Notes under the pieces: generated by a model | The model's database searches: none | The model's input: only the letters and a program-made list of their open reading frames with translations | Told to the model about the DNA's origin: nothing | DNA from: an uncultured Anaerolinea sp. | Lineage (GTDB): Bacteria; Chloroflexota; Anaerolineae; JAAEKA01 | Direction: 5' to 3' | DNA: 64,000 bases | Assembly: GCA_964626845.1 (NCBI GenBank) | Contig: CAZVGR010000005.1 | Coordinates: 36,557-100,556 of the forward strand | Shown: positions 2,972 to 52,156 of the stretch, piece after piece | Numbering within the stretch: the stretch's first letter is position 1 | Layout: every line of letters starts with the position of its first letter | Translations under genes and position numbers: made by a program

Positions 2972-3144
2972 GGCGATCCGCGGCGCGGCTGGAAACACCG
3001 GCGGTGGGCGTGGATTACCGAGTCTCCAATCTACGTTTACCCCGGTGTTCCCAGCCGCGGCTGATGTGCCCCCGTTTCTCCACTATACGCGTCTGCTGAC
3101 GCCCCCTCCAGTGACTGCGCAGAAGGTCATCGCAGCTTGGGCAG

Positions 3145-4302: not shown

Positions 4303-4310
4303 GGTAATCC

Positions 4311-6493
<2,183 letters not shown>

Positions 6494-23504: not shown

Positions 23505-26500
23505 TCAGTCACGCAACCGTTGTCTGGCCAGCCTGCTGGCTCCGGCCGCGGCCGCCAGAAGGGCCAGCGCAGGCAGCCAGGCGGGCGCGCCGGTCTGCGC
23601 CGCGGCATGGAAGCTGCTCCAGACAACGGCGGTGGGCGCATCGAACCGCGCCGAGACCGGACCAAAACGCTGCACAGAGCCATCCAGCGCCACAGCCTCC
23701 AGCCAATACCAGTAAGTCTCGCCAGGCAGCACATCCAGGTCGTCGTAGGCATAGAAGAAGCCGCCCGATGCGCCGGGGGACTGCGCCGGGATAAACGCCA
23801 ACAGATGCTGCCCGCCCTGGCTGGCGTCACTGCGCAGCAGGTGGAAGCCCTGGTTGTCCAGCTCGCTGGCCGTTTGCCACTGGATCTGCACGCGATCCGG
23901 CTGGCTGACCGCGCTCAGCATCTCCAGGGTCACGGCCAACGGCGTCTGGAACAAGGCTGAAACCGGCCCGAAGCTCTGGGTACTGCCGTCCGTGTCGAGA
24001 GCCTCCAGCCAGTACCAATAGGTGACGCCTGAGATCACGTCGTAGTCTTTGTACTCATACATGAAGCCGGCGGGACTGCCCGTGGACTGAGAGGGGATGT
24101 AGGCCAACGACTGGGGCGGCCCCTGGCTGGAGGTGCTGCGCAACAGGTAGAAGCCGCGGTTGTCCAGCTCGCTGGCCGTCTCCCATTCGACCAGGATATG
24201 GTCCATCTTACGCTCGGCCGCGAACGACACCATGGTCACAGCCGTCGGGCCGACGATGATGGGCGTGGTGTACACGTCCAGGCCCTCTGCCAGATTGGTG
24301 TAGCCGCTGGGCGGGATGATCTCGGCCATCATCACCAGATCGGCCGGGCCTGCAGTGGGCGCCACCGTCCCAACCACGGTAATCGTGATGATCCCGCCCG
24401 GCTGCAAGGTAAGGGTCTGGCTGAAACCGTTGCTGCCGCTAGGCGTCGTGCAGGAAGAGCCGCTGGAGGCGACGCATTGCCAGGTGACGCTGCCAAGCTC
24501 CTCTGGCAACGTGTCGCTGACAATGGGCGAGGCTGCAGTCGGGCCGTTGTTGGTGATCACAATCGTGTGCGTGATCAGATTCCCCTGCTTGACTGGGTTG
24601 GGTGTGCCGCTGATCTTCAACGGAATGTTGATCACCGGCTGCAGCACGCTGCCCGCGCCGCTCTCGCCGCTGTAGCTGATAGCATAGCCGTTCTGGTAAC
24701 TGGTAGTCGCCCGGTTAGTCAGCAGATTGCTGCCGCTGGCCAGCACGGTGATGGTATGGCTGTCAGTGGCCAGACTGCCCAGCCCGTCGCGCGCCGTTAC
24801 CACCGCCGTGTAGACGCCCGGCGTGCTGTAGGTGTGCTCGATGCTGGTGTTGGTAGTATACGACGCGCTCTGGTTGTCCCCGAAGCTGATGGTGTAGCTG
24901 AAGGGCAGCTTGCCGCGCAGCAATGGCAACATGGAAAACGTGACTTCTTCATCTTCCAGAGTTATCGATGGGGCGGTGACAAAGGGCACCGAGCGGCTAA
25001 AGGAGGCCTCCAGACGGTACAACAGGGCTGGATGGTCCTTGCCGCCGTATTCGGGGTGGCCGCCGTGGGTGCTGCCGGTGAGGCGCAGGGCCAGCAGGTT
25101 GACGCCGGCCAGCACGGCGCTGCTGACATCAGTGGCCGCGGCGTGACCCGCGCCATACTGAGTGGCCATATAGCGGCCATTGACGTAGATATCGACGATG
25201 TCGTCGCTGGCCGTCTGCAAGCTGGCCTGAAAACCGCGCGCGTTGGGCGGCAGGTAGAAGTATTGGCGGAAGAAGCTGTAGTTGCGGTCGATCTGCGGCT
25301 CCGGCTCGACCGCCACCCACTCGGCGCCCAGGGTTGCAGCCGGCAGCCAGTAAGGCTCGGTCGTCGCCGGGGGCTTCACGGTCTCCCAGAGCGAGTCGTC
25401 AAAGATCGGGCCATCAAGCTGTGGATTGCTCGTCCAGCCGGCCGGGCCAACCGGGTTGGCGTCGCCCCAGTAGCCCAGGATCGTGGAACAGCCCGCCGAG
25501 AAGCACCACGGACTGCTCACCGACTTGACGGTCGAGGTCAGAACCAGTGAACCTGAGGCGCTCTCGCTGCTGGCGGTGGGGGCTGACTGGCTGGCGCCGC
25601 CCGCGCCCACCCCGACCGTGACGGCAAAGCTGACCTGCCCGGTGGCGCCGACCCCCAGGTTGCCCAGATTCCAGGTGACCTTGCCACCGTTGGCGCTGCC
25701 GCCGCCGCTGATGCTGCCCGCAACCAGTGTCGTGTTGGCGGGGATCACATCGCTGATGACAACGCTGCGGGCTGCGACCGGGCCATCGTTGCGATAGACA
25801 ATGGTGTACGTGATCTGTCCGCTGACATAGCTCTGGCCGGCCACGCTCTTTTCCAGCACCAGGATGGGGCGAGCAATGCGCACGATATCCTCGGCGCTGT
25901 TGGTGCTGGGGTCCGGGTCTGGCCCACCAGCGCCGTCGTCGTCGATCTCCACCCGGTTGATGGTCAATTCGCCTGAGGCCGAAGCATCGACGGTGGCGGT
26001 CAGCACGATGGCGTGGGGACCATCGACAGCCACCTCGCCCAGGGTCCAGGTGACGACGCCAGCAGCATGGATGCCGGGTGGAGCGCTCTCCACGTAGGTC
26101 ATCCTTGGGTCCAGGGTGTCGGTGATGAGCACGCCCGAGGCCACCTGGCTGCCTGTGTTGCTGTAGGTGAGCGTGTACCGGACAGTCTGGTTGGCCTCGA
26201 AGTAGGTGCCGCTGTGGCTCTTGCGGATCACCAGGTCGGGCTGGGCGTTAACCGCCATCACCGCGGTGGACTGGTTGTCGGCCAGCACAGGGTCGCCCAC
26301 AGACGAGGTAATGTAGGCCGTGTTGCTGATCTGCTCCACGCCGGCCGGCAGCACATCGGTGATGCGCACGGTGAAGCTGATCACCCCGCTGGCGCCGGCT
26401 GCCAGATCGCCCAGGCTGAAACTGATCACCCGGCTTGCGCTGATATATTGCCCCTGATCTTCGTCATCGCCATCCGTCACGGGGCTGCCGTTCTGCTTCA

Positions 26501-28982
26501 GGCTGTTGGGGACATAGCTGGTATTGGCCGGGATGACGTCGGTCAGCACGGTATTAGTCGCGACCTCGTTGCCCAGGTTGCCATAGCGCAGGCGATAGAG
26601 CATCAGCTCGCCAGGCAGCGCGGGAATGGTGGTAGGAAAGGCGTTCTTTTGCACGTACACATCGGCCCCAGCCTGCGCGCTGAGCACCAGTGTCGATATG
26701 TTATCGGCCGGATCCAGGTCCAGTTCAGCGCTGGTGACCTCGGCCGTGTTGGTGATCAGCGTGACGCCAGGGGGCAGCGTGTCAGTCACCGTGGCGGTGT
26801 AGCGCAGATAGCCGGCTGCGCCCGGCGGCATATTGGGCAGGTTGAGGAGCAACTGCTTGATGGCGCTGTTGTAGGTCGCCGTCACCGGATAAGTAGTGCC
26901 TCCCACCACTAACACGGCAGAGCCGGGGACGTAGGTGGTGTTGCTGTCCAAAGTATCGGTGATGCGCACGCCGGTGGCGATGGCGCCGCCCCGGTTGTCG
27001 CCGATGTAGGTGTAGGTGATGGTGCTGCTGGCTGCAATCGGCACCGAGTCAGCCGTGGCGCTCTTGAAGATCGTCAGATCAGGACGGGCCAACACCTGGG
27101 TGGTGGCGATACGCTGGTTGTTGGTCAGGTCAGCTTCCAGGCTGGTGGTTGTGGCACGCGCCAGGTTGCTCAGCGTTGTAAGGCCATAGGGCATCGGGAT
27201 GGCGACGCGCGCGTTGAGGGTGAACACCTTTTGTTCGCCGATGGCCAGATTGCCCAAAGACCACCTCAGCGTGTTGGTGGGATTCTCAGTGGGCGTTATG
27301 CCGCTGGTGTCGCTGACATAGGCGGTGTAGCTGGGCAGCACGTCGGTCAGGATGACGCTGTTGGCGATCAGGCTGCCCTGGTTGCGCACGGTCAGGGTGT
27401 AGCTGATCAGCTCGTCAGGATAGACCAGGGTGCGGTTCGCGGTCTTCAGCACCAGCAGATCGGCCGTGGCCAGAGCCAGGTTCTGCGTGTTGTTGCACGC
27501 CGTCAGCGTTGGCGTTGCGGTCTGGGTCTGATAGTTCGTCTTGCTGGCGCGCACCGTGGCCGCCCCCGTGCGCAGCAGCTTGCTGGGCGTGCTGCTGAAG
27601 CTATACGCGCCGCCGCTGCCAGAAGTGGTCTCCCAGCGTGTGCCGACCGAATCGGTCAGAACCACAGTAGCGCCGACAATCGGCACACCCGTGCCCTGGT
27701 CGGTCACCACGCCGCTCAGCAGAGTTGGCGCCAGGGCCACGTTCTGGACATTGATGACCCCTTCAACCACGGCTGTGCTCAACGTCTTGGGGCAATAGCC
27801 AGTGGTGGAAACCTTCATCGACACCGGGCCGGCGTTGATGGGATTCTCAGTGCTGGCCGTGAACGAGTAGATGCCAGTCGTCTCGACAGCAACCGTGCTG
27901 TAGCTGTGCCTGGGCGTGCCAGTGTCAGTGATGACCACGGTGGCGCCGGGCAGAGGCGTGCTGCTGGTCTGGTCGGTCACCTGGCCGCGCAAAATGGTCG
28001 GCAGATTCTTGGCCGTAACCGTCAGGTTGCGGATCTCGTGATAGTTGGTGGAGCCGCCAGTGGAGGCCGCAAAGCCCATCTTCAGCGTTTCGGGGGGAGC
28101 ATTCGGCAGCAGATAAGACCCTATAATCGTCTGCAGCGCACCGGTGGCCCCGAACTGAATCTTGACCATGATGGTGTAGCTGCCCGTGCCAGTGGGCGTG
28201 ACGTCGATCTGGATCTTGCGATAGCCCGCGCCATTGATGTCAGGCCGGGTGGTCACGTTGGGCACGTCCAGCCGTTGTGAGGCTTGCACGCCCGTCAGGT
28301 AGACATAGCCGCTCATCCCGTTGCCCGGACCGCGCACCACCACGGCGCGCCCAACCCGGCCTGGCCCGCCGATGCGGCCCTCGGTCGGGTTGGAGAAGTT
28401 GCCGAATTCGTCGATGCCGATGCCCACATAACCGCTGGAGAGACCGTTGAAGCCAGAGCGCTGGGCATAACCCAACGAGCCGCCATAGCCGCCAATGTTG
28501 AAGCTTTGCTGGCCCGGTTCGCCCACATTGCCATCATAAAGAAAGAAGGTCAGGCCATCAGCGCCGGTGCCGCCCCAGCTCATATACTCAAAGGTGATCG
28601 CCAGGCCATTGGTCGACTCGAAAGACCGGTCGTAAATCGCATAGCCCTTTTTGTTGTACTCCTTGGTGGTCAGACGCAGCCAGCCATCGCCGTTGGGGTC
28701 CACGCCGGTCAGAGCCGTCAAGGAGGCATCGTCGCCGAGAATCCAGCCGTCGGCGAGGGTGCTATAACGAAACGACTCGGTGATCGGGAACGTGGCGGTC
28801 GGCGCCCGATGCTCGGCCGCGCTGACCGGCGGCTGGCCCTGCTGCAAGCTGCCGGCCGCAGCCGGCTGGCTGAAAGCCAGCGATAGCCATAAAGCGGCCA
28901 GCAAAGCGCCGCTGAGCAACAGACCGGTAGCCAGCAGAGCTACTGGCAGCGGGTGGCGAGAGTTGTGAGTCGTGTTCATCAT
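23505..28982 (-). CDS. Giant secreted/cell-surface protein: N-terminal L-type (legume-like) lectin domain, carboxypeptidase-regulatory-like and multiple DUF11/TIGR01451 repeats, PKD-like domain, two tandem ~95-aa C-terminal repeats, hydrophobic + basic C-terminal tail
   Basis: 1825 aa. Signal peptide. Lectin-like GWLRLTTKEYNKKGYAIY...GLAITFEY...ADGLTFFLYDG. DUF11 repeats (e.g. LLVLKTANRTLVYPDELISYTLTVRNQGSLIANSVILTDVLP). PKD-like FSMLPL...YTAVVTARDG. Tandem repeats WETASELDNRGFYLLRS / WQTASELDNQGFHLLRS. C-term PAWLPALALLAAAAGASRLARQRLRD. Confidence 0.85.
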   Translation of the reverse strand: MMNTTHNSRHPLPVALLATGLLLSGALLAALWLSLAFSQPAAAGSLQQGQPPVSAAEHRAPTATFPITESFRYSTLADGWILGDDASLTALTGVDPNGDGWLRLTTKEYNKKGYAIYDRSFESTNGLAITFEYMSWGGTGADGLTFFLYDGNVGEPGQQSFNIGGYGGSLGYAQRSGFNGLSSGYVGIGIDEFGNFSNPTEGRIGGPGRVGRAVVVRGPGNGMSGYVYLTGVQASQRLDVPNVTTRPDINGAGYRKIQIDVTPTGTGSYTIMVKIQFGATGALQTIIGSYLLPNAPPETLKMGFAASTGGSTNYHEIRNLTVTAKNLPTILRGQVTDQTSSTPLPGATVVITDTGTPRHSYSTVAVETTGIYSFTASTENPINAGPVSMKVSTTGYCPKTLSTAVVEGVINVQNVALAPTLLSGVVTDQGTGVPIVGATVVLTDSVGTRWETTSGSGGAYSFSSTPSKLLRTGAATVRASKTNYQTQTATPTLTACNNTQNLALATADLLVLKTANRTLVYPDELISYTLTVRNQGSLIANSVILTDVLPSYTAYVSDTSGITPTENPTNTLRWSLGNLAIGEQKVFTLNARVAIPMPYGLTTLSNLARATTTSLEADLTNNQRIATTQVLARPDLTIFKSATADSVPIAASSTITYTYIGDNRGGAIATGVRITDTLDSNTTYVPGSAVLVVGGTTYPVTATYNSAIKQLLLNLPNMPPGAAGYLRYTATVTDTLPPGVTLITNTAEVTSAELDLDPADNISTLVLSAQAGADVYVQKNAFPTTIPALPGELMLYRLRYGNLGNEVATNTVLTDVIPANTSYVPNSLKQNGSPVTDGDDEDQGQYISASRVISFSLGDLAAGASGVISFTVRITDVLPAGVEQISNTAYITSSVGDPVLADNQSTAVMAVNAQPDLVIRKSHSGTYFEANQTVRYTLTYSNTGSQVASGVLITDTLDPRMTYVESAPPGIHAAGVVTWTLGEVAVDGPHAIVLTATVDASASGELTINRVEIDDDGAGGPDPDPSTNSAEDIVRIARPILVLEKSVAGQSYVSGQITYTIVYRNDGPVAARSVVISDVIPANTTLVAGSISGGGSANGGKVTWNLGNLGVGATGQVSFAVTVGVGAGGASQSAPTASSESASGSLVLTSTVKSVSSPWCFSAGCSTILGYWGDANPVGPAGWTSNPQLDGPIFDDSLWETVKPPATTEPYWLPAATLGAEWVAVEPEPQIDRNYSFFRQYFYLPPNARGFQASLQTASDDIVDIYVNGRYMATQYGAGHAAATDVSSAVLAGVNLLALRLTGSTHGGHPEYGGKDHPALLYRLEASFSRSVPFVTAPSITLEDEEVTFSMLPLLRGKLPFSYTISFGDNQSASYTTNTSIEHTYSTPGVYTAVVTARDGLGSLATDSHTITVLASGSNLLTNRATTSYQNGYAISYSGESGAGSVLQPVINIPLKISGTPNPVKQGNLITHTIVITNNGPTAASPIVSDTLPEELGSVTWQCVASSGSSCTTPSGSNGFSQTLTLQPGGIITITVVGTVAPTAGPADLVMMAEIIPPSGYTNLAEGLDVYTTPIIVGPTAVTMVSFAAERKMDHILVEWETASELDNRGFYLLRSTSSQGPPQSLAYIPSQSTGSPAGFMYEYKDYDVISGVTYWYWLEALDTDGSTQSFGPVSALFQTPLAVTLEMLSAVSQPDRVQIQWQTASELDNQGFHLLRSDASQGGQHLLAFIPAQSPGASGGFFYAYDDLDVLPGETYWYWLEAVALDGSVQRFGPVSARFDAPTAVVWSSFHAAAQTGAPAWLPALALLAAAAGASRLARQRLRD

Positions 28983-35457: not shown

Positions 35458-35549
35458 ATAAAACATGATCTATATCATACGCTTTTATCAAAAATCCTGG
35501 TATGATTGGGCCGTTGCAGACTATACTCAAGGTTTCTCAGGAGGAGACT

Positions 35550-37556
35550 ATGTCTCGTTTGCGTGTTCTACCAATCCTATCGATCCTGCTGATCCTGGCG
35601 CTGCTGGTTGCAGGCTGCGGCCAGCAAGCCACGCCAGAGCCGACGCCCGTCCCGCCGACAGCTACCCCCGTGCCGCCGACGGCCACGCCGGTCCCGCCCA
35701 CGGCCACCCCTGTGCCGCCCACGGCTACGCCGGTGCCGCCAACACCCACGCCTGTACCGCCCACGCCAACCCCCGAACCGGAACCAGAGTCGGGCGTGTT
35801 GGATGATGCCATGGCCTTCTTTGGCGCTGGCGTGAAGTTGATCTCGGCTGACGCCCTCTACGAGAACCTCAACGACGGCGACGCCAGCAACGATCCCTTC
35901 ATCATCTCATTGCGCTCGGCCGAACATGACGCCGTAGGCCAGATCCCAGGCGCCTACAACATCAGCGTCAAGGAGCTGATGTCACCCGAGGTGCTGGCCA
36001 CCCTGCCCACCGACCGGCAGATCGTCGTCTACTGCTACACCGGCCAGAACTCAGCCCAGGCCGTGACAGCGCTGAACATGGCCGGCTTCGACGCAGCCAG
36101 CCTCACCTATGGCATGAGCGGCTGGACCACCGATCCGGCGGTCTATGTCAACCGCTTCAACGCAGAAACGACCCCGCGCCAGTTCGCAACCTTCACCGAC
36201 ATGCCGGAATGGAGCGACGAGACCTTCGCGCTGGCCACGCCATTGGCCGAGACCAGCGCCGAGGCCGCCTACGCCTACCTGAGCGCCAACGGCGCCAAGA
36301 TGATCGCGGCCGATGCGGTGTACGAGAACCTCAACGACGGCGACGCCAGCAACGACCCCTTCATCATCTCGGTGCGGGCCCAGGAAGACTACGCCAAGGG
36401 ACACCTGCCTGGCGCGCTGTGGACGACGCCCAAGGACCTGTTCACCCCTGAGATGCTGGCCAAGCTGCCCACCGACCGCCAGATCCTGGTCTACTGCTAC
36501 ACCGGCCAGAACTCCGGCTTCGTGGTGGCGGGTCTGAACATGCTGGGCTACGATGCCATCAGCCTGACCCACGGCATGAGCGGCTGGACCGACGATCCGG
36601 ATGTCTTCGTTCGCCGCTTCAACGCCGAGACGACGCCGCGCAACTTCCCCACCGAGGCTGGCGCCGTGCGCTCGCTGGCTGCCGGCTCGGACGGCGACCT
36701 GGCCACGGCCGCAGATGCTTACTTCAGCGGCGGCCCGAAGACTATCACCGCCGACGCGCTGTTCGAGATCCTCAACGACGGCGACGACAGCAACGACCCG
36801 ACGATCATCTCGGTGCGCAAGGCTGAGGATTTCGCTAAGGGCCACCTCCCTGGCGCGATCAACCTGACCCACGCCCAGCTCTTCACGCCCGATGTGCTGG
36901 CGACGATCCCGCAGGACAAACCGGTGGTGGTCTACTGCTACACCGGCCAGACGGCCAGCCAGGCAGTCTCGGTGCTGAACATGCTGGGCTACGACGCCCG
37001 CAACCTGGTCTTCGGCATGAGCGGCTGGACGACAGACCCTGAGGTCTACGTGACCCGCTTCGACCCCACCAAGGCCAACGACTTCCGAACGACCACGGAA
37101 GGCTTTGAGGCTGAGGGCGAGTACGACCTGCCCGAGCCGCTGGCGGCCACCGTGCTGGATGCAGCAGCGGTCTACTTCGGTGCAGGGCTGAAGACAATCC
37201 AGGCGCCGGCGTTGTACGAAAATCTGAACGACGGCGACGAGAGCAACGATCCCTACATCATCTCGGTGCGTTCGGCAGAGCACTACGCACTGGGCCATTT
37301 GCCAGGCGCAGTCTGGTACGACGCCAAGGCGCTGTTCACGCCAGACAGCCTGAGCACCCTGCCCAACGACCGCCCCATTGTGGTCTACTGCTATACCGGC
37401 CAGACCGCCAGCCAGGTGACTTCGGTGCTCAATCTGTTGGGCTACGATGCCAGCAACCTGGTGTTTGGTATGGGCAACTGGACCAACGATCCTGCGGTCT
37501 ACGTCAATCGCTTCAACCCGGAGACGACCCCGCGCGACTTTCCGGTTGAGAAATAG
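35550..37556 (+). CDS. Lipoprotein with four tandem rhodanese (sulfurtransferase) domains, each retaining the catalytic Cys (CYTGQ)
   Basis: Start MSRLRVLPILSILLILALLVAGC with strong RBS AGGAGG (the track ORF starts 48 nt earlier). PT-rich linker (TATPVPP x4). Four repeats ending ...VVYCYTGQNSAQ / LVYCYTGQNSGF / VVYCYTGQTASQ / VVYCYTGQTASQ. Confidence 0.85.
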   Translation: MSRLRVLPILSILLILALLVAGCGQQATPEPTPVPPTATPVPPTATPVPPTATPVPPTATPVPPTPTPVPPTPTPEPEPESGVLDDAMAFFGAGVKLISADALYENLNDGDASNDPFIISLRSAEHDAVGQIPGAYNISVKELMSPEVLATLPTDRQIVVYCYTGQNSAQAVTALNMAGFDAASLTYGMSGWTTDPAVYVNRFNAETTPRQFATFTDMPEWSDETFALATPLAETSAEAAYAYLSANGAKMIAADAVYENLNDGDASNDPFIISVRAQEDYAKGHLPGALWTTPKDLFTPEMLAKLPTDRQILVYCYTGQNSGFVVAGLNMLGYDAISLTHGMSGWTDDPDVFVRRFNAETTPRNFPTEAGAVRSLAAGSDGDLATAADAYFSGGPKTITADALFEILNDGDDSNDPTIISVRKAEDFAKGHLPGAINLTHAQLFTPDVLATIPQDKPVVVYCYTGQTASQAVSVLNMLGYDARNLVFGMSGWTTDPEVYVTRFDPTKANDFRTTTEGFEAEGEYDLPEPLAATVLDAAAVYFGAGLKTIQAPALYENLNDGDESNDPYIISVRSAEHYALGHLPGAVWYDAKALFTPDSLSTLPNDRPIVVYCYTGQTASQVTSVLNLLGYDASNLVFGMGNWTNDPAVYVNRFNPETTPRDFPVEK

Positions 37557-43131: not shown

Positions 43132-44491
43132 GCTGGCGTCAGCGGGTTTTGGTTTACACGTCTCGGCATGGTACACTGCCGGCGAAGCCATCATGTCGCC
43201 AACCACCAGCCCCCGCCTCTCTCCGCTGGCCCACGGACGCGCAGCCGTAGCGGCGCTGCACGCTCATTACGTGCCTGCCGTCTTCATCGGCCTGAGCTAC
43301 ATGGCCATCGCCACCATGTGGACGCTGTACAGCGCCTACGTGCCGGTACTTCTGCAGGTCGATTTCGGCCTGCGGGCCACGGCCATCGGCCTGGTGATGA
43401 TGCTGGACAACCTGCTGGCGCTGCTGATCCAGCCTTGGATCGGCGCGCGCAGCGACCGGCTGCGCAGCCGCTGGGGCAAGCGGCTGCCGATCATCGTCGC
43501 TGGTACGCCCTTCGCCGCCATTGGCTTTGCGCTGATCCCGCTGGCCGGCGACTTCTTCGACGGGCTGCCCGGCTTTGTCGCCACGGTGATGATCATGCTG
43601 GTCGCCATGGCCGCAATCCGCGTGCCTCTTTTTGCGCTGCTGCCCGACCTGACCGCGCCGGAGCGGCGCAGCACCGCCAACGGCATCATCAACCTCTTCG
43701 GCGGCATCGGCATCCTGATTGCCACTCTGGGGCTGGGCTGGCTGTATCGCATCAACCGGGCAGGCCCGTTCGCTGTAGGCGCGCTGATGTTGGTGCTATC
43801 GACGCTGCTGCTGGCAGCCGTGCTGCCCAGGCTGACGCAACGCTATGCCGTGGACGAAAACGGGGTCGAAAACGGGGAAACTCCCACCAACTCCTTCCAG
43901 ATGCTGCTGGATGTGCTGGCTGAGAACTGGCGCAGCGTGCCGCTGCTGCTGCTGGCCATTCTGCTCTACACCTTCGGCATCAATGCTATCGAGACCTTCT
44001 TCAGCCTCTACGGCCGCAATGTGCTGGGGATCAGCGAAGACCGGGCGCTGATGATCCTGGGGGTGTTCTTCATCGCCTATATCATCGCCTCCGTCCCCGC
44101 GGGCCTGGTGGGCGAGCGCTTCGGCCGGCGCCGCACCATGACGGCCGGCTTGCTGGTCATCTCCGTGCTGGTGTTCGGCGCCTTCTTCCTGCGCTCAGCG
44201 CCGGCCATGCTGGCCATCATGCCGCTGGGCGGGGTGGCCTGGGCGCTGGTCAACACCAACGCCCTGCCGGCCTTGCTGGGCATGTCCACCCCCGGCCGCG
44301 CCGCCAGCACGGTGGGCCTGTTCTACGCCACCACCACGCTGGCCTCGATCCTCAGCCCGGTCACGAACGGCTGGTTTATCGATCTGGGCGGCGACAACTA
44401 CAACATCGCCATCCTCTCCACCAGCATCGTGGCCGGCCTGGCCGCGTTGGTTTTGTTCGTTATGGGACGCTTTGAGCGCGGGGAGCGGTGA
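43130..44491 (+). CDS. MFS-family transporter (12 TM)
   Basis: Hydrophobic helices throughout. MFS loop motifs GARSDRLRSRWGKR and GERFGRRR. Start may be the internal ATG at 43193 (MSPTTSPRL...). Confidence 0.75.
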   Translation: MLASAGFGLHVSAWYTAGEAIMSPTTSPRLSPLAHGRAAVAALHAHYVPAVFIGLSYMAIATMWTLYSAYVPVLLQVDFGLRATAIGLVMMLDNLLALLIQPWIGARSDRLRSRWGKRLPIIVAGTPFAAIGFALIPLAGDFFDGLPGFVATVMIMLVAMAAIRVPLFALLPDLTAPERRSTANGIINLFGGIGILIATLGLGWLYRINRAGPFAVGALMLVLSTLLLAAVLPRLTQRYAVDENGVENGETPTNSFQMLLDVLAENWRSVPLLLLAILLYTFGINAIETFFSLYGRNVLGISEDRALMILGVFFIAYIIASVPAGLVGERFGRRRTMTAGLLVISVLVFGAFFLRSAPAMLAIMPLGGVAWALVNTNALPALLGMSTPGRAASTVGLFYATTTLASILSPVTNGWFIDLGGDNYNIAILSTSIVAGLAALVLFVMGRFERGER

Positions 44492-44535
44492 GCGATGAGC
44501 GGGGAGCGGACGTTTACCGCTTGCCGTTCACCGTT

Positions 44536-45735
44536 TTACCGTTCACCGGCAACAGCGTCCAGCGCTTGCTCCAGGTCAGCGATGATATCGGCTGCGTCCT
44601 CAATGCCGATGCTGAGGCGCAGCAGGCCGTCGGTGATGCCCAGGCGAGCGCGCTCGGCCGGGGGCACGGCGCGGTGGCTGGCCATGACGGGGTGCAGCGC
44701 CAGGGAGTACACATCCCCCAAGGTCGTGGCGGGCAGGACCAGCCTGAGCGCGTCCAGGAAGCGGAAGGCCGCAGCCTGCGTGTCAGCGCCCAGCTCGAAG
44801 GCGATCATGCCGCCGTAGCCGCGACCGCCGAACAGCCGCCGGGCCAGCGCGTGCTGGGGATGGTCCGCCAGGCCGGGGTAGTGGACGCGAGCCACGGCCG
44901 GATGGGCCGCCAGCCACTGGGCCACGTGCAGCGCATTGGCGCAGTGGCGCTCCATGCGCAGCGGCAGCGTCTTCAGCCCGCGCAGCGCCAGCCAGGCCAC
45001 CTCCGGCGCCAGCACAGCGCCGAGAAGCTTCTCCAGGGCGAAGAGCCGCTGCCTGTTCTCGGCCGATGTCACCACCACGCCGGCCAGCACGTCGCCATGG
45101 CCGCCGATGTACTTGCTGGCCGAGTGGACGACGTAGTCCGCGCCCAGGCTGAGCGGCTGGCACAGGTAGGGCGTGGCAAAGGTGCTGTCCACAATCAAGG
45201 CCGCGCCGGCCGAGTGGGCCAGCTCAGCCAGCGCGGCGATGTCGGCCAGCTTGAGCAGCGGGTTGGACATAATCTCCACTAGCAGGGCGGCCGGCCGGCG
45301 CTCAGCCAGCGCAGCCTGCACCTGGGCCAGGTCGGTCACATCCACAAAGGCCGCGGTCACGCCCTGCTCGGCCATCAGCGCGTCGAGCAGGCTGTAGGTA
45401 GCGCCATAGCAGTCCTGGGCTGCGACCACGGCGCGGCCGCTGCGCACGCCGGCCGCCAGCAGCGCAGCATGGATGGCTGCCATGCCTGATGCGGTGGCAA
45501 AGGCCGCCTCGCCGCCCTCCAGCGTCGCCATAGCCTGCTCAAAGGCGTCCACCGTGGGGCTTCCATAGCGGCGGTAGACGTAGCCGGCCTGCTCGCCGGC
45601 GAACACCGCATCCATGCGGGCGGCCGACGGCTCCAGATAGGCCGCTGCGTGGTAGATGGGGGTGGTAACAGATGTTTCAACCGGTACGGGCTGCCGTTCA
45701 CCGGCGTGGACGGCTTGGGTGTAGATGGATGGCAT
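44536..45735 (-). CDS. PLP-dependent Cys/Met-metabolism enzyme (cystathionine gamma-synthase / beta-lyase / methionine gamma-lyase family)
   Basis: 399 aa. PLP-lysine motif SASKYIGGHGDVLAGVV. Family-typical N-terminus TTPIYHAAAY and VYRRYGSPT. Confidence 0.8.
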   Translation of the reverse strand: MPSIYTQAVHAGERQPVPVETSVTTPIYHAAAYLEPSAARMDAVFAGEQAGYVYRRYGSPTVDAFEQAMATLEGGEAAFATASGMAAIHAALLAAGVRSGRAVVAAQDCYGATYSLLDALMAEQGVTAAFVDVTDLAQVQAALAERRPAALLVEIMSNPLLKLADIAALAELAHSAGAALIVDSTFATPYLCQPLSLGADYVVHSASKYIGGHGDVLAGVVVTSAENRQRLFALEKLLGAVLAPEVAWLALRGLKTLPLRMERHCANALHVAQWLAAHPAVARVHYPGLADHPQHALARRLFGGRGYGGMIAFELGADTQAAAFRFLDALRLVLPATTLGDVYSLALHPVMASHRAVPPAERARLGITDGLLRLSIGIEDAADIIADLEQALDAVAGER

Positions 45736-45795
45736 GGGAACCTCACGGAAAAGTTTGAATGCCTCAGGTTTTCTCGAGGCGGGCCTTTACTACAC

Positions 45796-45899
45796 CGTAA
45801 ACAAATTAACTGCGTATCGGTGCCCGGCACTTTGGCGACGATTCGCACATGATCAGAGGCTCGTGTCAAGTGCCGGGCACCTCAACAACTTTGTTTACG
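45796..45899. mobile_element. MITE-like element, variant subfamily (outer TIR CGTAAACAAA, inner palindromic core GGTGCCCGGCAC...GTGCCGGGCACC)
   Basis: Outer 10-bp inverted repeat CGTAAACAAA / TTTGTTTACG. Core and adjacent segments homologous to the copy at 10066-10131 in opposite orientation. No TSD seen. Confidence 0.5.
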
Positions 45900-46138
45900 A
45901 TGTATTTACGACTGTCCAGGGCTGGCTCAGTCTCGATGAGTGCTTTCTCTGCCGCCGAATTATACCTGAGCAGATGCTTCAGGGTCAATGTCGCCGGACC
46001 TGGTGCATTGCGCCCAGAGTATGGACACATGGCTAGCCGAACTATGGACAATAGGCGCAACGATGGCTGGACGACGACCTTCCCAGCCGAGGCCAAGAAC
46101 CAATGGCTGGCTCAGAAGGCCAGCCCGATAGAGTTGGT

Positions 46139-46166
46139 TTGACATTCGGTTAATCTCACTTACAAT
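46139..46166 (+). promoter_or_regulatory. Sigma-70-like promoter TTGACA-N16-TACAAT
   Basis: TTGACA 46139-46144, TACAAT 46161-46166. ~125 nt upstream of ATG 46292. Confidence 0.5.
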
Positions 46167-46291
46167 GAGATCATCCCCTGTCTATCGCTGTGCGGGTGCT
46201 CGGACCTGGCAGATCCGTGCTGCTCCACGCCGAGTCCGCTCAGCGATGGGGCATCCTGCCCATCGATCGTGTACCGGCAAGGAGGATTGTC

Positions 46292-47299
46292 ATGCGCCGT
46301 CATCGCATCGTATCTGCGGCACTGGGTCTTTGTTGTCTCGCGGCGCTCGGCTTGGCGCTGCTGGCCAGCGCTGTCACGATCCGCTCGTTGGCGCGTCCGG
46401 TCTTCGCATCGTCGCCTATAGCATCGCCCGCAGTTAATCTGGAGCAAGCGGTCTTGGAGCAGGCGGCCCAGGCTCTGGGTTGCGGGTCCAGCGTCGGTGT
46501 TGTCGTGCGACCGCCTGAGGTCTTCTCTGAGGCCATCTATCAGGCTGCTATAGCGCAGGGACTGTTCTCCTCGACCACGTTGCATCAGATATATCTGCCC
46601 TTGCTGATGCGATCTGGTTCCGACTCTGCGCTGCCAGACCTGCGGATCGACTCGATGGTCATTGAGGCCGATCCCTGGGTCGCGTGCGATGATCCACCTC
46701 CACCGCTGGGACTCACCGTTCACTTCTCCAACATTGGCGATGGCGACGCCAGCCCCTTCGTGTTGGACGCCAACGGCGAGGAGTTGTTCCTGCCTGGCCT
46801 GGCGGCGCGCAGCTCGAGCGTCGCCCGCGCCCAGACCTATGTGGCTGGCGGTCCCAACACTGCGTTCATCGACTCTACGGATCTGGTGGCGGAGAGCGAC
46901 GAAACGAACAACCGGCTCAGCCAGATGTTGCCCATTCCCACACCCCTGCCACCCTGCACACCGACCCATACGCCAACCCCCACACGTACCGCTACGCCCA
47001 CGCCTACTCCCACCGTCACGACCTGGCCAACCGGAGATCTCTGGTGGTCGAGGCAGGTCCACGTCTATGATGCCCGCGTTGGGCCACAAGCAGGCGTTTC
47101 AGGCGCGCGTGTCGACGCTGTGGCTTTGTCAACAGATACCTGCACCACTGACAGCAGCGGCAACTGCATGGTAACCGTTCATGCGCATGATACCGGCACA
47201 GTGCGAATTTCCGTTTCCGCTTCCGGCTACCAGTCGTTTAGTGGTGAGTATTCGGGTATGCCTCCGTCAGGAATAATCAACATTGGTTTGACTCCATGA
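46292..47299 (+). CDS. Secreted hypothetical protein (signal peptide, CARDB-like domain, TP-rich linker, C-terminal beta-rich domain)
   Basis: Start MRRHRIVSAALGLCCLAALGLALLASAV with RBS AGGAGG (the track ORF starts 102 nt earlier). Linker TPTHTPTPTRTATPTPTPT. Confidence 0.6.
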   Translation: MRRHRIVSAALGLCCLAALGLALLASAVTIRSLARPVFASSPIASPAVNLEQAVLEQAAQALGCGSSVGVVVRPPEVFSEAIYQAAIAQGLFSSTTLHQIYLPLLMRSGSDSALPDLRIDSMVIEADPWVACDDPPPPLGLTVHFSNIGDGDASPFVLDANGEELFLPGLAARSSSVARAQTYVAGGPNTAFIDSTDLVAESDETNNRLSQMLPIPTPLPPCTPTHTPTPTRTATPTPTPTVTTWPTGDLWWSRQVHVYDARVGPQAGVSGARVDAVALSTDTCTTDSSGNCMVTVHAHDTGTVRISVSASGYQSFSGEYSGMPPSGIINIGLTP

Positions 47300-47395
47300 G
47301 CAAGCTGGCCTTCTCTCTGGCGCTAACCACGATACTTGATGAATATGGCATACTCGTTCCCAGTTCCTCCCGGTTACCCTGAGTTGATGTGCTTG

Positions 47396-48550
47396 CTATG
47401 CGATCACCATCGCATCCCCAAACGAATAAAACCGATACCCCTCCGCCACCGCCTCGGCATAGGCCCGGTCGATCAACTCCTTCCCAGCGAACGCGCTGAC
47501 CAGCATCAGCAGGGTGCTGCGCGGCAGGTGGAAGTTGGTGATCATGGCGTCCACGGCGCGGAAACGGTAACCGGGGCGGATGAAGAGGTTGGTCTCGCCC
47601 TCGAAGGCGGCGGTGCGCTTCCAGGGGCAGGCCTCCACGTCGTAGGGGTCCAGCCCCTGCGCGCCGGTGGCGGCCCACTCCAGCGTGCGCACGGCCGTGG
47701 TGCCGACGGCGATGACCCGGCCGCCAGCCAGCGTGGTGTCGTTAATCTGGCGCGCCACGTCGCGCGACAGGCTGGCCCACTCGCTGTGCATGGGGTGATC
47801 CTCGACGCGCGCGACCTTGACCGGCTGGAAGGTGTCCAGGCCGATGTGCAGGGTGACGAAGGCCAGCCCAACGCCGCGCTCCCGCAGGTCGAGCAGCAGC
47901 TCCGGCGTGAAGTGCAGCCCGGCCGTGGAGGAAGCCGCCGAGCCCTCGACGCGGCTGTAAACGGTCTGGTAGCGTTCGCCGTCGGCCAAGGGGGTATGGA
48001 TGTAGGGCGGCAGCGGCGTCTCGCCCAGGTCGTAGAGCCACTCGGCCGTGGGCCGGTTGAAGCTGACCAGCCGGCCGGCCTCGTCCAGCTCGGCCTCGAT
48101 GGTGGCGACAATGGGTGCTGGCTCGGTCAGAGACCGGCCAGAGCGGTGGAGGGGGGTGATCACCACCTGCACGCCGGGCCGCAGTCCCTTGCCGCCCACC
48201 AGGCACTCCCACGCCTCGCCGCCAGACCCGAAGGGTTTCCGGGCGCGACTCGCATCATCCCCTGGACTTGCATCGAGACCCTTCGGGTCTGGGACCGGCC
48301 GCAGCAGCAGGATCTCCACCTGCCCGCCGCTGGCCTTGCGGCCATGCAGCCGCGCCGGAATCACGCGGCTGTCGTTGGCCACCAGCAGGTCGCCCGGCTG
48401 CAAATACTCGCCGATGTCGCGGAAGGTGCGATGCTCCAGCCGGCCGGTCTGGCGATGCACCACCAGCAGCCGCGACGAGTCGCGCGGCTCAATCGGCGTC
48501 TGGGCGATCAGCTCAGGGGGGAGGGTGTAATCGAAGTCAGATGTGTTCAT
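47396..48550 (-). CDS. queA: S-adenosylmethionine:tRNA ribosyltransferase-isomerase
   Basis: Start MNTSDFDYTLPPELIAQTPIEPRDSSRLLVV (QueA N-terminus). Conserved QueA blocks through the C-terminus (...YRFYSFGDAMVI). Confidence 0.9.
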   Translation of the reverse strand: MNTSDFDYTLPPELIAQTPIEPRDSSRLLVVHRQTGRLEHRTFRDIGEYLQPGDLLVANDSRVIPARLHGRKASGGQVEILLLRPVPDPKGLDASPGDDASRARKPFGSGGEAWECLVGGKGLRPGVQVVITPLHRSGRSLTEPAPIVATIEAELDEAGRLVSFNRPTAEWLYDLGETPLPPYIHTPLADGERYQTVYSRVEGSAASSTAGLHFTPELLLDLRERGVGLAFVTLHIGLDTFQPVKVARVEDHPMHSEWASLSRDVARQINDTTLAGGRVIAVGTTAVRTLEWAATGAQGLDPYDVEACPWKRTAAFEGETNLFIRPGYRFRAVDAMITNFHLPRSTLLMLVSAFAGKELIDRAYAEAVAEGYRFYSFGDAMVIA

Positions 48551-48604: not shown

Positions 48605-48691
48605 ACGTAATGCGTAACACGTAACTCGTAACTCGGAACACCTGCTGGTTGCGAGAAGTGTCCGGTTACGGGTTACGGGTTACGGGTTACG
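48605..48691. repeat. Inverted pair of short tandem-repeat arrays: (CGTAAC)x4 ... (GTTACG)x4, separated by ~30 nt
   Basis: ACGTAATGCGTAACACGTAACTCGTAACTCGG ... CCGGTTACGGGTTACGGGTTACGGGTTACG. The last unit overlaps the stop codon of gene 48687-49394. Between queA and that gene. Confidence 0.7.
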
Positions 48692-49394
48692 GGTTACGCG
48701 CCGCGCCAACAAACTCACTGAACAGCCGCCGGTGCCGCTCGTCCAGCTCGTAGAAGCGCTCCGGGTGCCACTGGACGGCCAGCACCCAGCGACGGGCAGG
48801 CGCTTCGATGCCTTCCAGCAGCGCCGGACCCTCGACGGTCGCGGCCGATGCTTGCAACCCGGCCGCCAGGCGTTCGGCGGTCACGGCCTGGTGATGGTAG
48901 GTGTTGACGGCGAAGCGCCCGTCCAGCCCCAGCGTGCGGGCCAGCAGCGTGTCCGCTTGCACGGCGACGTCGTGGTAGGCGACCGCTTCCTTGGGCGAGC
49001 GGTGACCGTCCACATGCTGCACCAGGCTGCCGCCCAGGGCCACGTTCAGCACCTGGAAGCCGCGGCAGACGCCCAGGATAGGCAGATCGACGGCCAGCGC
49101 GGCGCGGGCCAGGCTCAACTCCAGCGTGTCACGGCCGTCGTGGATATAGCGCTTCTCGCTGCCCTGCATGCGCTCGTTGTAGTGCTTCGGATGCACGTCG
49201 CCGCCGCCGGAGAGCAACAGGCCGTCCAGTTGCGCCGCTTGCTGTTCAGGCGGCAACAGCGCCGTCTCCGGCGTCAGCAGCACGGGCTGGCCGCCGGCCC
49301 AGGTCACAGCCCACCAATAGTTGCGCACCCAGCCGTCGAAGTAGATTTTGTCGTTGCTGCGGGCGGTGATGCCGATGCGGGGGGGAAGTGTCAT
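48687..49394 (-). CDS. Class-I glutamine amidotransferase-like peptidase C26 (gamma-glutamyl-GABA hydrolase family)
   Basis: Catalytic Cys in GVCRGFQ, His in the VQWHPE region. 235 aa. Confidence 0.75.
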   Translation of the reverse strand: MTLPPRIGITARSNDKIYFDGWVRNYWWAVTWAGGQPVLLTPETALLPPEQQAAQLDGLLLSGGGDVHPKHYNERMQGSEKRYIHDGRDTLELSLARAALAVDLPILGVCRGFQVLNVALGGSLVQHVDGHRSPKEAVAYHDVAVQADTLLARTLGLDGRFAVNTYHHQAVTAERLAAGLQASAATVEGPALLEGIEAPARRWVLAVQWHPERFYELDERHRRLFSEFVGAARNP

Positions 49395-49398
49395 GTGT

Positions 49399-49430
49399 CA
49401 GGTTGCAAGTGGCAGGTTGCAGGTTGCAAG
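49399..49430. repeat. Short tandem repeat (C)AGGTTGCA x3
   Basis: CAGGTTGCAAGTGGCAGGTTGCAGGTTGCAAG, between the 48687-49394 gene start and the ruvB stop. Confidence 0.6.
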
Positions 49431-49439
49431 GATCGCGCG

Positions 49440-52034
49440 TCAAGACAGGTCGCCGTTGACAGTCGACGGATCTGGGGTAAACAGGCTGGGCTGGGCGGCG
49501 CCAGACTGGGCCTTCTCCGGCCAGACGGCGCCGATATGCTCGTAAGCCAGCCGCGTGGCGGCGCGGCCGCGCGGCGTGCGGTCCAGGAAGCCCAGTTGCA
49601 GCAGATACGGCTCGACCACGTCCATGATGGTGCCCGAGTCCTCGCTCAGCGCCGCAGCGATGGTCTCCAGCCCCACCGGCCCGCCGTCGAACTTCTCCAC
49701 CAGCAGGCGCAGCACCTTGCGGTCCAGGTCGTCCAGGCCCAGCGCGTCGATCTCCATCAGGCGCAGGGCCTGGTCGGCTGTCTCGGCCGTGATCACGCCG
49801 TCGCCGCGCACCTGGACGTAGTCCCGCACGCGGCGCAGCAGGCGCAGGGCCACACGCGGCGTGCCGCGGGCCCGGCGGGCGATCTCGCTGGCGCCGTCGT
49901 CGCTGATGGTCACCTGCAAGAGCGCGGCCGCGCGGCGCACGATCTCCTCCAGCGCGGCCTGCTCGTAGAAGTCGAAGCGGTAAATGGCGCCGAAGCGCGA
50001 GCGCAGCGGCGCAGTCAGCAGGGCCAGCCGCGTCGTCGCGCCGATCACCGTGAAGCGGGGCAGCTTGAGGCGGATCGAGCGCGCGCTGGGGCCTTTGCCG
50101 ATGACGATATCCAGCGCGAAGTCCTCCATGGCCGGGTAGAGGATCTCCTCCACGGCCCGGCCCAGGCGGTGGACCTCGTCGATGAAGAGGATGTCGCCCT
50201 TGTGCAGGTTAGTCAGGATCGCCGCCAGATCGCCGGCCCGCTCGATAGCCGGCCCGGCCGTCGTCTTCATGGCTACGCCCATCTCGTTGGCCAGGACGTG
50301 GGCTAGCGTCGTGTTGTGATTGAAGAATCCGTTGGCTACAAATGAATGGCTACCAGGAACGACGAAATCATAGGTCGCTGCGAAGCCTTCCTCAATCTGC
50401 TTCACGCGATCCCAATAAATAGCCGGATCTGTCAACGAACATAGCGTTTGGTACTCCGGAGTTTCCTGAATCCAGGGCGGCAGAAGTTCGAGGTAGCGTT
50501 GAATCTGTTGTCGCGTTGGAGTTCGATCGTTGCGACTCGCATGGCTAAACGCCTTATGAGTCGAATGTGGGTGAGGCCCTGATAGATGAAGCAAGGAGCG
50601 TAGACTAGAGTTCGAACATGGAACGAGTTCACTCCGACTCCAGCCGCCTGTTCGCATCCTTAGGCCCTCTGCTCGGTCCCGCTTACGGCCTAGACGAAAA
50701 CTGACAATATCGTGATAGCGCTCGGCGTCGATTCCACCAACGAAGAGTGTCCAGTAGTCTACGGCTTTGATTCTCTTCCGGTTACGGCTAGCAATAATGC
50801 CAAGGTTGGCTAGAAGCAACTGCACTTGTTGGGCGAGTTGTTTTGAGCGCGTACCATATTCTACATAACCTTCTGGCCAGACATTTCCATCAGCATCAAA
50901 CAAGCCTTGCAAGAATCCGATAGCTGTCGAGCGCTCTCCTGATAACACGCTGGCAGGCACCACCTTGTTGGACGCGAGTTCAGCCTTCATCCCTAAGGCA
51001 AGCATGAGATGCCCGATTGTCTGACTGAAACGCAACTGCGGCGCCCTGTCGCCGTACTGTCGTATTTCAGGAGCTTGGCCGAATAGTCTCTGTGCAATCC
51101 GCTGCAATTCAACCTGTATCTCAGGCTCGCTGCAGGTGATAACAAAGGCGGGGGAATTCTGTCCGCGTTCGAAGTGACCATCTCCAACTAGCATTCCCAT
51201 CACGTAAGCCAAGTCCGCGTCAAGATCGATTACGCGAGCTCTGTTGTCGACAAGTTCAGTGGTAAAGCGCCACGGCGAAGCTTCCACGTCAACTGATCGC
51301 CCATCAGTTAGCGAGAGACCCAATCGTTTGGCTGCTACTTCCGGCGTTGGATTCTTGCTGGCTGCACCCATGTAAGCGTGTCTCAGTTCAATGGCTGCGG
51401 GAGGTCTTCCCAGACCATTGACCAAATCTTCGTAGATGTGGCGGATCCTGCAATCCGTCCAAGCGCGTCGCATGCTAGATGCGTCTGGCTGCCAAGATGC
51501 AGACTGCGGTTGACCCCACTGGTTCATGCCGCGACCGATAGCCACATAATCTTCAGTGGAAATCTCTTCAAGGCGTTTCCATTGGGGACCGCTTGGCGTG
51601 GCAACCAACAAGGCATGGTTTGGCGTGCCTTCGATTTCGAAGCCCGCTTTGGTGATGATGCGACGTGTCGTTCCGTGACCACTAGCATAGACGTATGAAG
51701 TCGTTTCGATGCCGTTGAGACCATAGACCAAGGTGCGACAAGGCACGTAAGTATCTGGTGCGAGGGTGTCTGGAATGAACGAATCGAAGGACTTCCATCC
51801 CTGCTCGGTCAGAATGAGCGAGGTGGCAGTGATGCACTTGCCCAGTCCGGGCGGACCATACAAGAGCACATGATCCAGCGACTCGCTGCGTTGCTGGGCG
51901 GCCTGTAAGAGGATCTCCAGGTTGTCGCGCAGGCGGTCCTGGCCGATCATCTCGGCCAGGCGCTTGGGGCGCAGGGCGGCGTCCAGCGCGGCTTCTTCGG
52001 GGCGTTTGCGGGCGGAAACGGTGCGGTCGTCCAT
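49440..52034 (-). CDS. ruvB: Holliday-junction branch-migration ATPase RuvB interrupted by a ~508-aa intein in the Walker-A P-loop
   Basis: N-extein ...[11 protein letters not shown]-extein [13 protein letters not shown]...FIDEVHRL...[14 protein letters not shown] (RuvB sensor/winged-helix regions). 864 aa total vs ~340 for typical RuvB. Confidence 0.9.
50313..51836 (-). other. Intein with LAGLIDADG homing-endonuclease domain inserted between GLGK and TT of the RuvB P-loop
   Basis: Cys1 ([13 protein letters not shown]), C-terminal ...VANGFFNHN followed by +1 Thr. LAGLIDADG motifs [14 protein letters not shown] and [14 protein letters not shown]. Visibly lower GC (~50%) than the flanking extein DNA. 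Confidence 0.8.
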
Positions 52035-52039
52035 GAGTC

Positions 52040-52063
52040 GGTAGATTGGTAGATTGGTAGATT
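52040..52063. repeat. Tandem repeat (GGTAGATT)x3 occupying the 5' leader immediately upstream of the ruvB start codon
   Basis: TCGGTAGATTGGTAGATTGGTAGATTGGTCGG. On the coding strand the leader reads ...CCAATCTACCAATCTACCAATCTACCGACTC-ATG, with no Shine-Dalgarno-like purine run. Confidence 0.65.
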
Positions 52064-52156
52064 GGTCGGGTTGCGCCTGGTTTTGGGTGGTTGGTCAGTG
52101 GGGATTATACACGAAGGGGCGCAGATTGGTCGAAACCTGATCTGCGAAACCACACA

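Follow-up and report, generated by a model that had tools for sequence, protein, structure and literature searches.

A probable bifunctional LAGLIDADG intein within the Walker A motif of RuvB from an uncultured Chloroflexota bacterium

Introduction

The P-loop intein of mycobacterial DnaB is one example of a conditional intein lodged in the nucleotide-binding loop of an ATPase. A second, and the closest functionally studied analogue of the element described here, is the Pho RadA intein, which interrupts a recombination ATPase directly at its Walker A P-loop, uses Cys1 and a +1 Thr as nucleophiles, leaves its precursor ATPase-dead before splicing, and has been shown to splice conditionally, triggered by single-stranded DNA (PMC5238726). 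Here we describe a 508-amino-acid (aa) insert in the Walker A motif of RuvB, encoded in a 64,000-nucleotide stretch of DNA from an uncultured Anaerolinea sp. (contig CAZVGR010000005.1; this whole stretch is hereafter the window). The insert is very probably a full-length bifunctional class-1 intein, in which a two-motif LAGLIDADG homing endonuclease is nested in the Hint domain, and which we infer to splice and to home. Its likeness to Pho RadA is one of architecture, similarity being confined to the Hint blocks (PDB entries 4e2u and 2lqm, ~1e-9); the RadA element is a ~170-aa mini-intein without endonuclease in an archaeal RecA-fold host, whereas the RuvB intein has 508 aa with LAGLIDADG motifs and interrupts a bacterial AAA+ hexameric motor.

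An initial reading of the window, made from its letters alone (the sequence-only reading), had described the P-loop as a recurrent intein site in ATPases, and the literature bears this out: documented sites include DnaB site b, MCM site a, RFC-S and RadA (PMC4760082), and RecA (2018 review, PMC5874633). It was unsure whether RuvB inteins had been catalogued; they have, since Table 1 of the 2018 review (PMC5874633) includes RuvB among its bacterial hosts, and they are abundant in public data. RuvB is absent from the top-15 list and main text of Novikova et al. 2016 (PMC4760082), and our literature search found no dedicated study of a RuvB intein, returning RuvB together with intein only as incidental co-mentions and in the review table, and RuvB together with LAGLIDADG not at all. 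NCBIfam holds intein-containing models for GyrA, RecA and Tes and none for RuvB. RuvB is not a new intein host, and the family is one already recorded but barely described.

Among solved structures, the TliVMA and PhoVMA inteins (7qss, 7qsu, 7qst), PI-PkoII (2cw7), PI-PfuI (1dq3) and yeast PI-SceI (1vde) share with the RuvB intein a Hint domain split by a two-motif LAGLIDADG endonuclease with accessory DNA-binding regions. They differ in host (V-ATPase A subunit, DNA polymerase or ribonucleotide reductase (RNR)) and come from another domain of life, with structural-alignment identities of 11-18%, the closest of them, the archaeal VMA, PI-PkoII and PI-PfuI inteins, standing at 14-18%, and an extra helical region of the RuvB intein, residues ~396-470, is not uniformly matched by solved intein structures. 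Two further groups, the RecA inteins of the candidate phyla radiation (CPR) and the class II RNR inteins of Chloroflexota (L040-L072), also lie after a Lys and before a Thr, the RecA inteins at the equivalent Walker A GK/T (a slash marks an insertion point or junction throughout), but they have other hosts, ~440-450 aa and lower identity, and form separate families in a 50%-identity library. Public same-site RuvB inteins (P0001, P0004 of Caldilineaceae, P0107 of Abditibacteriota, and those of Salinibacter/Rhodothermales metagenome-assembled genomes (MAGs)) have the identical insertion point and domain order.

Results

An open reading frame (ORF) at 49440..52034 on the minus strand stays open over 864 codons, and its product passes the curated RuvB equivalog cutoffs of NCBIfam, scoring 476.6 bits against a cutoff of 282 for NF000868, in two stretches, and 427.4 bits against a cutoff of 299 for TIGR00635. 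Pfam recovers the RuvB_N, AAA_lid_4 and RuvB_C architecture, with RuvB_N likewise in two stretches, and the Walker A, Walker B and RSRF arginine-finger regions are all present in the exteins. The host gene is ruvB, encoding the Holliday-junction branch-migration AAA+ ATPase, of a Caldilineales-type Chloroflexota bacterium. Walker A GPPGLGK is reached at residue 66, and the insert follows as precursor residues 67-574 (window 51836..50313; 508 aa, 1,524 bases) with the junctions GPPGLGK/CITATS...FFNHN/TTLAHVL, so that the split within Walker A GK/T proposed in the sequence-only reading, and the length it gave, hold to the residue. Conceptual removal of the insert yields a 356-aa RuvB in which a perfect Walker A, GPPGLGK+TT, is restored and which aligns end to end, gap-free at the junction, with the solved RuvBs 7x7q, 6blb and 1hqc (E down to 9e-126). 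Within the insert Pfam finds LAGLIDADG_3 (1.6e-17) and Intein_splicing (1.6e-12). The insert is not a product of chance: its open frame spans 1.5 kb, contains every intein block and restores Walker A on removal, and intein-free (empty-site) alleles, described below, corroborate it independently. The features of the locus, with the basis of each, are as follows.

49440..52034, minus strand: ruvB gene with the intein, encoding the precursor, 864 codons and a stop (ORF list; NCBIfam; Pfam)
51837..52034, minus strand: N-extein (RuvB residues 1-66) with the first part of Walker A, GPPGLGK, at its end, 51837..51857 (translation; blastn against relative L159)
50313..51836, minus strand: predicted class-1 intein, 508 aa, with embedded LAGLIDADG homing endonuclease (junction motifs; blastn breakpoints against relatives L159 and L162; AlphaFold2; Foldseek)
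51798..51836, minus strand: block A with Cys1, the first nucleophile (C1 in 109/109 family members)
51597..51644, minus strand: block B, GTPNH, T71-x-x-H74 (T71 in 106/109, Ser in 3; H74 in 109/109)
51174..51218, minus strand: LAGLIDADG motif 1 (block C), MLVGDGH, with predicted catalytic Asp219 (D219 in 107/109; model helix 207-219)
50964..50966, minus strand: conserved endonuclease-domain lysine, intein K291 (109/109 members)
50883..50921, minus strand: LAGLIDADG motif 2 (block E), GLFDADGN, with predicted catalytic Asp316 (D314 in 109/109, D316 in 107/109; Pfam LAGLIDADG_3 1.6e-17)
50328..50381, minus strand: block F, D490 and H497 (D490 in 109/109; H497 in 107/109)
50310..50327, minus strand: block G plus the +1 residue, FFNHN/T, with penultimate His507, terminal Asn508 and +1 Thr (H507 and N508 in 109/109)
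49440..50312, minus strand: C-extein, spliced-RuvB residues 67-356 plus stop, starting TTLAHVL, the rest of Walker A (translation; blastn against L159; alignment to 7x7q)
50169..50192, minus strand: Walker B, ILFIDEVH, within the C-extein (translation)

The insert carries the full set of class-1 sequence features, namely Cys1, TxxH, D490/H497, an HN end, a +1 Thr and an in-frame insertion with intein-free homologues, and it passes NCBIfam intein_Cterm (TIGR01443) with 20.7 bits, the cutoff being 15.6. Blocks A, B, F and G, the loss of which would have spoken against the sequence-only reading, are all present and near-invariant over 109 family members, with C1, H74, D490, H507 and N508 in every one; the +1 Thr is found here and in all 108 of the homologues that could be parsed. 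Both LAGLIDADG motifs sit between blocks B and F and, as that reading held, both are retained, with D219, D316 and also K291, to which the comparison with PI-SceI and I-CreI would assign the role of active-site Lys.

An AlphaFold2 model of the intein, built from a 15-sequence family alignment, has a mean pLDDT of 92.5 and a pTM of 0.89, and its top Foldseek matches are intein-homing endonucleases: the TliVMA intein 7qss (E 1e-22), PI-PkoII 2cw7, PI-PfuI 1dq3 and PI-SceI. The predicted fold is Hint, matching the intein structures 7qss, 2cw7, 1dq3 and 1am2, and the endonuclease core of the model matches the free-standing I-DmoI and I-Tsp061I (Foldseek TMt 0.68-0.77), with the secondary structure of residues 207-395 fitting a pseudo-dimeric alpha-beta-beta-alpha-beta-beta-alpha core. 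A sequence-profile search of the PDB with the intein returned the same intein-endonuclease families. A bacterial intein-like (BIL) or otherwise non-splicing Hint domain was considered and rejected: the insert has HN/T, interrupts the best-conserved motif of an essential-type ATPase and carries an endonuclease.

When the spliced extein was used as query, the nearest RuvBs were P0121 (95%, 358 aa), P0122 (94%, 366 aa) and P0123, "Caldilineales bacterium" (88%, 350 aa), all without an intein. Intein-free ruvB in relatives, which the sequence-only reading had suggested looking for, therefore exists, and the insert does not correspond to a normal RuvB domain in them, the closest relatives encoding an uninterrupted RuvB of 358-366 aa. 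The contigs encoding P0121 (L159) and P0122 (L162) are syntenic with the window over DUF4870/MamF-like, ruvB, Peptidase_C26 glutamine amidotransferase and queA genes, and further to a Cys/Met pyridoxal-phosphate (PLP) enzyme and an MFS transporter. In blastn the alignment to both contigs stops at window 51837 and resumes at 50316, 1,524 bases being precisely absent from the relatives, in which the empty site around the insertion point reads CTGGGCAAG/ACGAC; in L159 the intein-free site reads ...GGTCCGCCGGGTCTGGGCAAG/ACGACTCTGGCGCACGTCCTG... The exteins are 89% identical to L159 in DNA, and nucleotide identity to the L159 ruvB is 93.5% for the N-extein and 90.1% for the C-extein. Extra divergence near the junction was not seen against L159, mismatches within 60 nt on each side (~11%) equalling the gene average.

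In a third syntenic contig, L161, a long-read assembly contig with many frameshifts, the site is occupied by an intein whose identity to that of the window is 72% at the protein and 69% at the DNA level. At synonymous sites the window and L161 have an identity of 0.43 for the inteins and 0.62 for the exteins. The ratio of nonsynonymous to synonymous substitution rates (dN/dS) for this pair was abandoned, L161 being frameshift-ridden and synonymous sites near saturation, and only third-position identities are given.

A protein search with the intein only gave 166 matches, and all of the best 120 are RuvB proteins of about 850-880 aa, of which 108 could be parsed automatically as GxxGxGK/C...HN/T(T or S), with a median intein length of 508 aa. 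These same-site inteins, 43-72% identical to the window intein, form with it a family of more than 100 RuvB inteins. In a one-genome-per-species scan of GTDB, ~39 species representatives from at least five phyla carry a RuvB intein, the carriers including Anaerolineae, Caldilineaceae, Thermoflexales, Rhodothermales/Salinibacter/Rubricoccaceae, Blastocatellia/Pyrinomonadaceae, Abditibacteriaceae and one Uhrbacteria MAG; Chloroflexota, Bacteroidota (Rhodothermales), Acidobacteriota and Abditibacteriota are among the phyla of the family. The exact 864-aa protein is absent from a collection of 15 billion proteins; over the collections searched, the best full-length match to the window copy is 61% and the best partial match 72% identical. 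The sole identical public sequence found is a Logan contig (L160, SRR13617030, 1402 nt) that equals window 49399-50800 at 100%.

In the 50%-identity representative library the RuvB-intein family comprises one full-length representative plus fragments and is discrete from the 222 other intein matches there, which mostly cover only residues 205-508. The next-nearest inteins, 24-30% identical, are those at the RecA P-loop GK/T of CPR bacteria and at SK/T of the class II RNR of Chloroflexota, and related inteins recur at Lys/Thr junctions. The RecA inteins at Walker A GK/T (L040-L045, L047) come from Saccharibacteria, Daviesbacteria and Liptonbacteria, and the class II (B12-dependent) RNR inteins at NSISK/T (L048-L072) from Caldilinea, Thermoflexus and Anaerolineales; a MetK intein from Micrarchaeia (L064) is also among the nearest non-RuvB relatives. 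IMG/VR and GenBank phages yielded only distant inteins (at most 31% identity) in terminases, helicases and RecA, and a phage vector or origin is accordingly unsupported.

Over the 109 family inteins the LAGLIDADG core has a mean column conservation of 0.64, as compared to 0.65 for the N-terminal Hint region, and in seven close family pairs, on which dN/dS was measured rather than on the window copy alone, the ratio is 0.06-0.31 for the endonuclease core and 0.05-0.18 for the Hint domain. Because core conservation equals that of Hint and dN/dS is similar to that of Hint, we conclude that the endonuclease is under purifying selection in the RuvB-intein family.

Two Anaerolineae-type genomes, L002 and L004, are 96.7% identical over 7.5 kb, and within this span the intein and the first ~475 nt of the C-extein are ~0.85% diverged against 3-4% around them; the tract of ~2 kb (locus coordinates 3001-5000) has ~4-fold fewer differences than its flanks (Fisher p 4e-5). 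From its pattern of differences, this tract looks like recent homing or gene conversion with one-sided co-conversion. Neighbour-joining (NJ) trees of inteins and exteins disagree in places: Chloroflexota inteins fall in two clades, and the inteins of a Blastocatellia member (L001) and one Bacteroidota member (L005) join the clade of the window, whereas their exteins join their own phyla.

Reduced forms occur at the same site. A Rhodothermales MAG chromosome (OZ244148.1, L046, 3001-3777) encodes a 259-aa mini-intein that keeps blocks A, B, F and G and has lost the LAGLIDADG domain almost wholly, and P0038, P0095 and P0104 have smaller internal deletions. In another Rhodothermales MAG (JBBSMV010000047.1, L039, ~4500-4530) the intein apparently ends ...GGIVNHT/TTLAA, with Thr in place of the terminal Asn; this should block Asn cyclisation, and the allele is either splicing-dead or a sequencing error.

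The sequence-only reading had further noted that the intein is markedly lower in guanine plus cytosine (GC) than the exteins and had taken this as consistent with horizontal acquisition. The contrast is real: the intein has a GC of 0.530 and a third-codon-position GC (GC3) of 0.531, the N-extein 0.677 (GC3 0.83) and the C-extein 0.702 (GC3 0.92), that is, 53% against 68-70%, with the whole window at 0.633; the stretch that had been singled out, taken as 50300-50699, reads 0.51-0.545. The GC3 of the intein is below that of all 25 window ORFs taken as genes (median 0.79, minimum 0.58) and of 117/117 sliding segments, each at most 508 codons long, drawn from those ORFs. However, intein GC3 is below extein GC3 in 35/35 of the RuvB-intein loci measured, with gaps of ~0.02 to 0.42, of which that of the window copy is among the largest, and the L161 intein is likewise low (GC 0.51 versus 0.62-0.66). 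Because the direction is the same in all 35 loci and in L161, low GC is partly a family trait, or reflects weaker codon-usage selection, and the case for recent import is weakened to that extent. Empty-site alleles are the stronger evidence for gain or loss. A low-GC patch at 14.5-16.5 kb of the window lies inside a PAS/GAF hybrid kinase and is not an intein.

No other intein was found within the window: a hidden Markov model (HMM) of the family, searched over every six-frame ORF down to a length of 80 aa, recovered the RuvB intein alone, and Pfam on the nine largest window ORFs gave histidine kinases, a DUF11/PKD surface protein, and YfhO and rhodanese proteins, with no further intein.

In the otherwise conserved neighbourhood of ruvB there is one variable spot: window 45736-47403, between queA and the Cys/Met-metabolism PLP enzyme, consists of ~1.6 kb differing from L159 9497-10326, where L159 carries a MazE/PIN toxin-antitoxin pair. 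The ORF in the window version (46160-47089 minus, or 46190-47299 plus) is without a Pfam match and has a low GC3 of 0.65. The intergenic leaders of the ruvB cluster (52040-52066, 49395-49428, 48605-48698, 44478-44548) are filled with perfect or near-perfect 7-8-nt tandem repeats: GGTAGATT x3.4 immediately precedes the ruvB ATG, where a purine-rich Shine-Dalgarno is lacking, CAGGTTG x4.3 stands in front of the amidotransferase gene, and queA is preceded by GGTTACG x5 and ACGTAAC x5.3. The ruvB leaders of the syntenic relatives (L159 ~5915-6000, L162 ~3930-4000, L161 ~5690-5738) have repeats of other units, namely a CCAATCA/CCAGTCA series, CACCCTGT x5 and CTCACTAT x4. Such leader repeats recall the heptameric short tandemly repeated repetitive (STRR) sequences of filamentous cyanobacteria.

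Elsewhere in the window, a one-strand run of ORFs at 3145-23230 on the minus strand includes six, scanned with Pfam, that are large PAS/GAF/PocR sensor histidine kinases (744, 651, 1013, 1362, 813 and 1254 aa), five of them hybrid kinases with receiver domains; the gene for an 1825-aa DUF11/PKD/lectin surface protein comes next, at 23505-28982. The ORF at 35502-37556 encodes a four-rhodanese-domain protein and has near its 5' end (35643-35775) a Pro/Thr/Ala-rich 21/42/63-nt tandem repeat, the unit being about CCCGTGCCGCCCACGGCCACC in ~6 copies.

Discussion

The class-1 splicing pathway is well established, and in its terms one could envision the RuvB intein acting as follows. The 864-aa precursor would be unable to bind ATP, its P-loop being split; because the Walker A Lys and Thr stand 508 residues apart and such a precursor would have no ATPase, RuvB function would depend on splicing. 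Cys1 would undergo an N-S acyl shift, the hydroxyl of the +1 Thr would attack the thioester in a transesterification, Asn508 would cyclise with His507 assisting and release the intein, and an O-N shift would leave a native K-T peptide bond, giving an active 356-aa RuvB and a free 508-aa endonuclease. The freed endonuclease would then be expected to cut the uninterrupted GK/TT-coding site, of ~20-40 bp, in intein-free ruvB alleles entering the cell, and recombinational repair would copy the intein into the cut allele (homing). Homing, combined with the lethality of an imprecise deletion in the P-loop, could account both for the persistence of the intein and for its patchy distribution.

For the family, the patchy presence among near relatives, the incongruent trees, the tract shared by L002 and L004, and the stages of decay together suggest mobility. 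Several points nevertheless qualify this reading of the window intein. Splicing and DNA cleavage are here inferred from residues, fold and selection; the low GC of the intein is weak evidence of recent acquisition and need not mean recent arrival; and the NJ trees are without support values, which weakens the incongruence. The extein flanks of the window show no tract co-converted from a foreign donor, a donor intein more than 72% identical was not found, the GTDB species scan giving no match above 57%, and the data fit gain in the window lineage and precise loss in the lineages of L159 and L162 alike.

The absence of a close donor and of a co-conversion signature would also fit an old, vertically inherited passenger that is competent to splice and whose endonuclease no longer homes. 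Under such circumstances the intein would have entered the Caldilineales in ancient times and been lost precisely in L159 and L162, its low GC would be intrinsic, and it would survive solely because imprecise loss from the P-loop is lethal. The syntenic ruvB of L161, with its 72%-identical intein at the same place and low in GC as is that of the window, points the same way, as does the uniform direction of the GC3 difference over all 35 family loci. However, the catalytic residues are intact here and in 107 of the 109 members, and the dN/dS of the endonuclease core is as low as that of Hint, which would not be expected of a dead domain; in addition, the lower synonymous identity of the inteins than of the exteins between the window and L161 is easier to explain by separate acquisitions, a comparison that composition confounds. 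We regard the passenger explanation as unlikely, though the likeliest of the alternatives considered here.

Alternatively, the intein may have been domesticated as a conditional-splicing switch that keeps the RuvB ATPase off pending a trigger for splicing, perhaps branched or single-stranded DNA bound by the exteins, or the redox state at Cys1; conservation of the endonuclease would then reflect a secondary role or continued mobility. The architecture is that of Pho RadA, with a P-loop site, C1, and a +1 Thr doubling as the Walker A residue that coordinates Mg2+ (PMC5238726), and selective retention of P-loop inteins has been argued by Novikova et al. (PMC4760082). The persistence of the family over at least five phyla at a strictly conserved site would agree with such a role, as would the intein tree, which within sub-clades largely tracks the host tree and suggests long vertical retention. 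The intein is dispensable for RuvB function in this clade, however, since close relatives do well without it; the endonuclease residues and dN/dS point to selection on the nuclease, which regulation does not require; and L002 and L004 give evidence of recent transfer or conversion. A regulatory switch is improbable in our judgement. More speculative still is a coupled system, in which DNA damage or branched DNA would trigger splicing and RuvB activity and homing would be co-regulated after a double-strand break; the idea arises because the family retains an intact endonuclease near-universally, across five or more phyla, and its host protein acts on the recombination intermediates that homing itself produces, and we consider it a long shot.

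That the insertion does not splice, leaving ruvB a pseudogene or its product a dead precursor while another branch-migration activity is used, is very improbable and we reject it: although the apparent Thr for the terminal Asn in L039 indicates that defective copies may exist, the 2.6-kb frame is intact here, every extein and intein catalytic residue is conserved, and the exteins are 94-95% identical in protein to those of intein-free relatives, indicating continued purifying selection on RuvB.

Taken alone, the window intein is a textbook intein and requires no new biology, and it explains an otherwise puzzling 864-aa "RuvB", database entries of this kind being named simply RuvB. What is documented here is a coherent, RuvB-specific family of same-site inteins whose sole mention in the literature is one row of a review table. 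Every stage of the homing cycle can be traced in the family, from empty sites through full-length copies and partial deletions to a mini-intein, together with one apparent recent conversion tract. With endonuclease-intact members in at least five phyla, the family suits the study of intein mobility in uncultured bacteria, and it could supply Thr+1 P-loop inteins with which to ask whether splicing in recombination ATPases is controlled by substrate.

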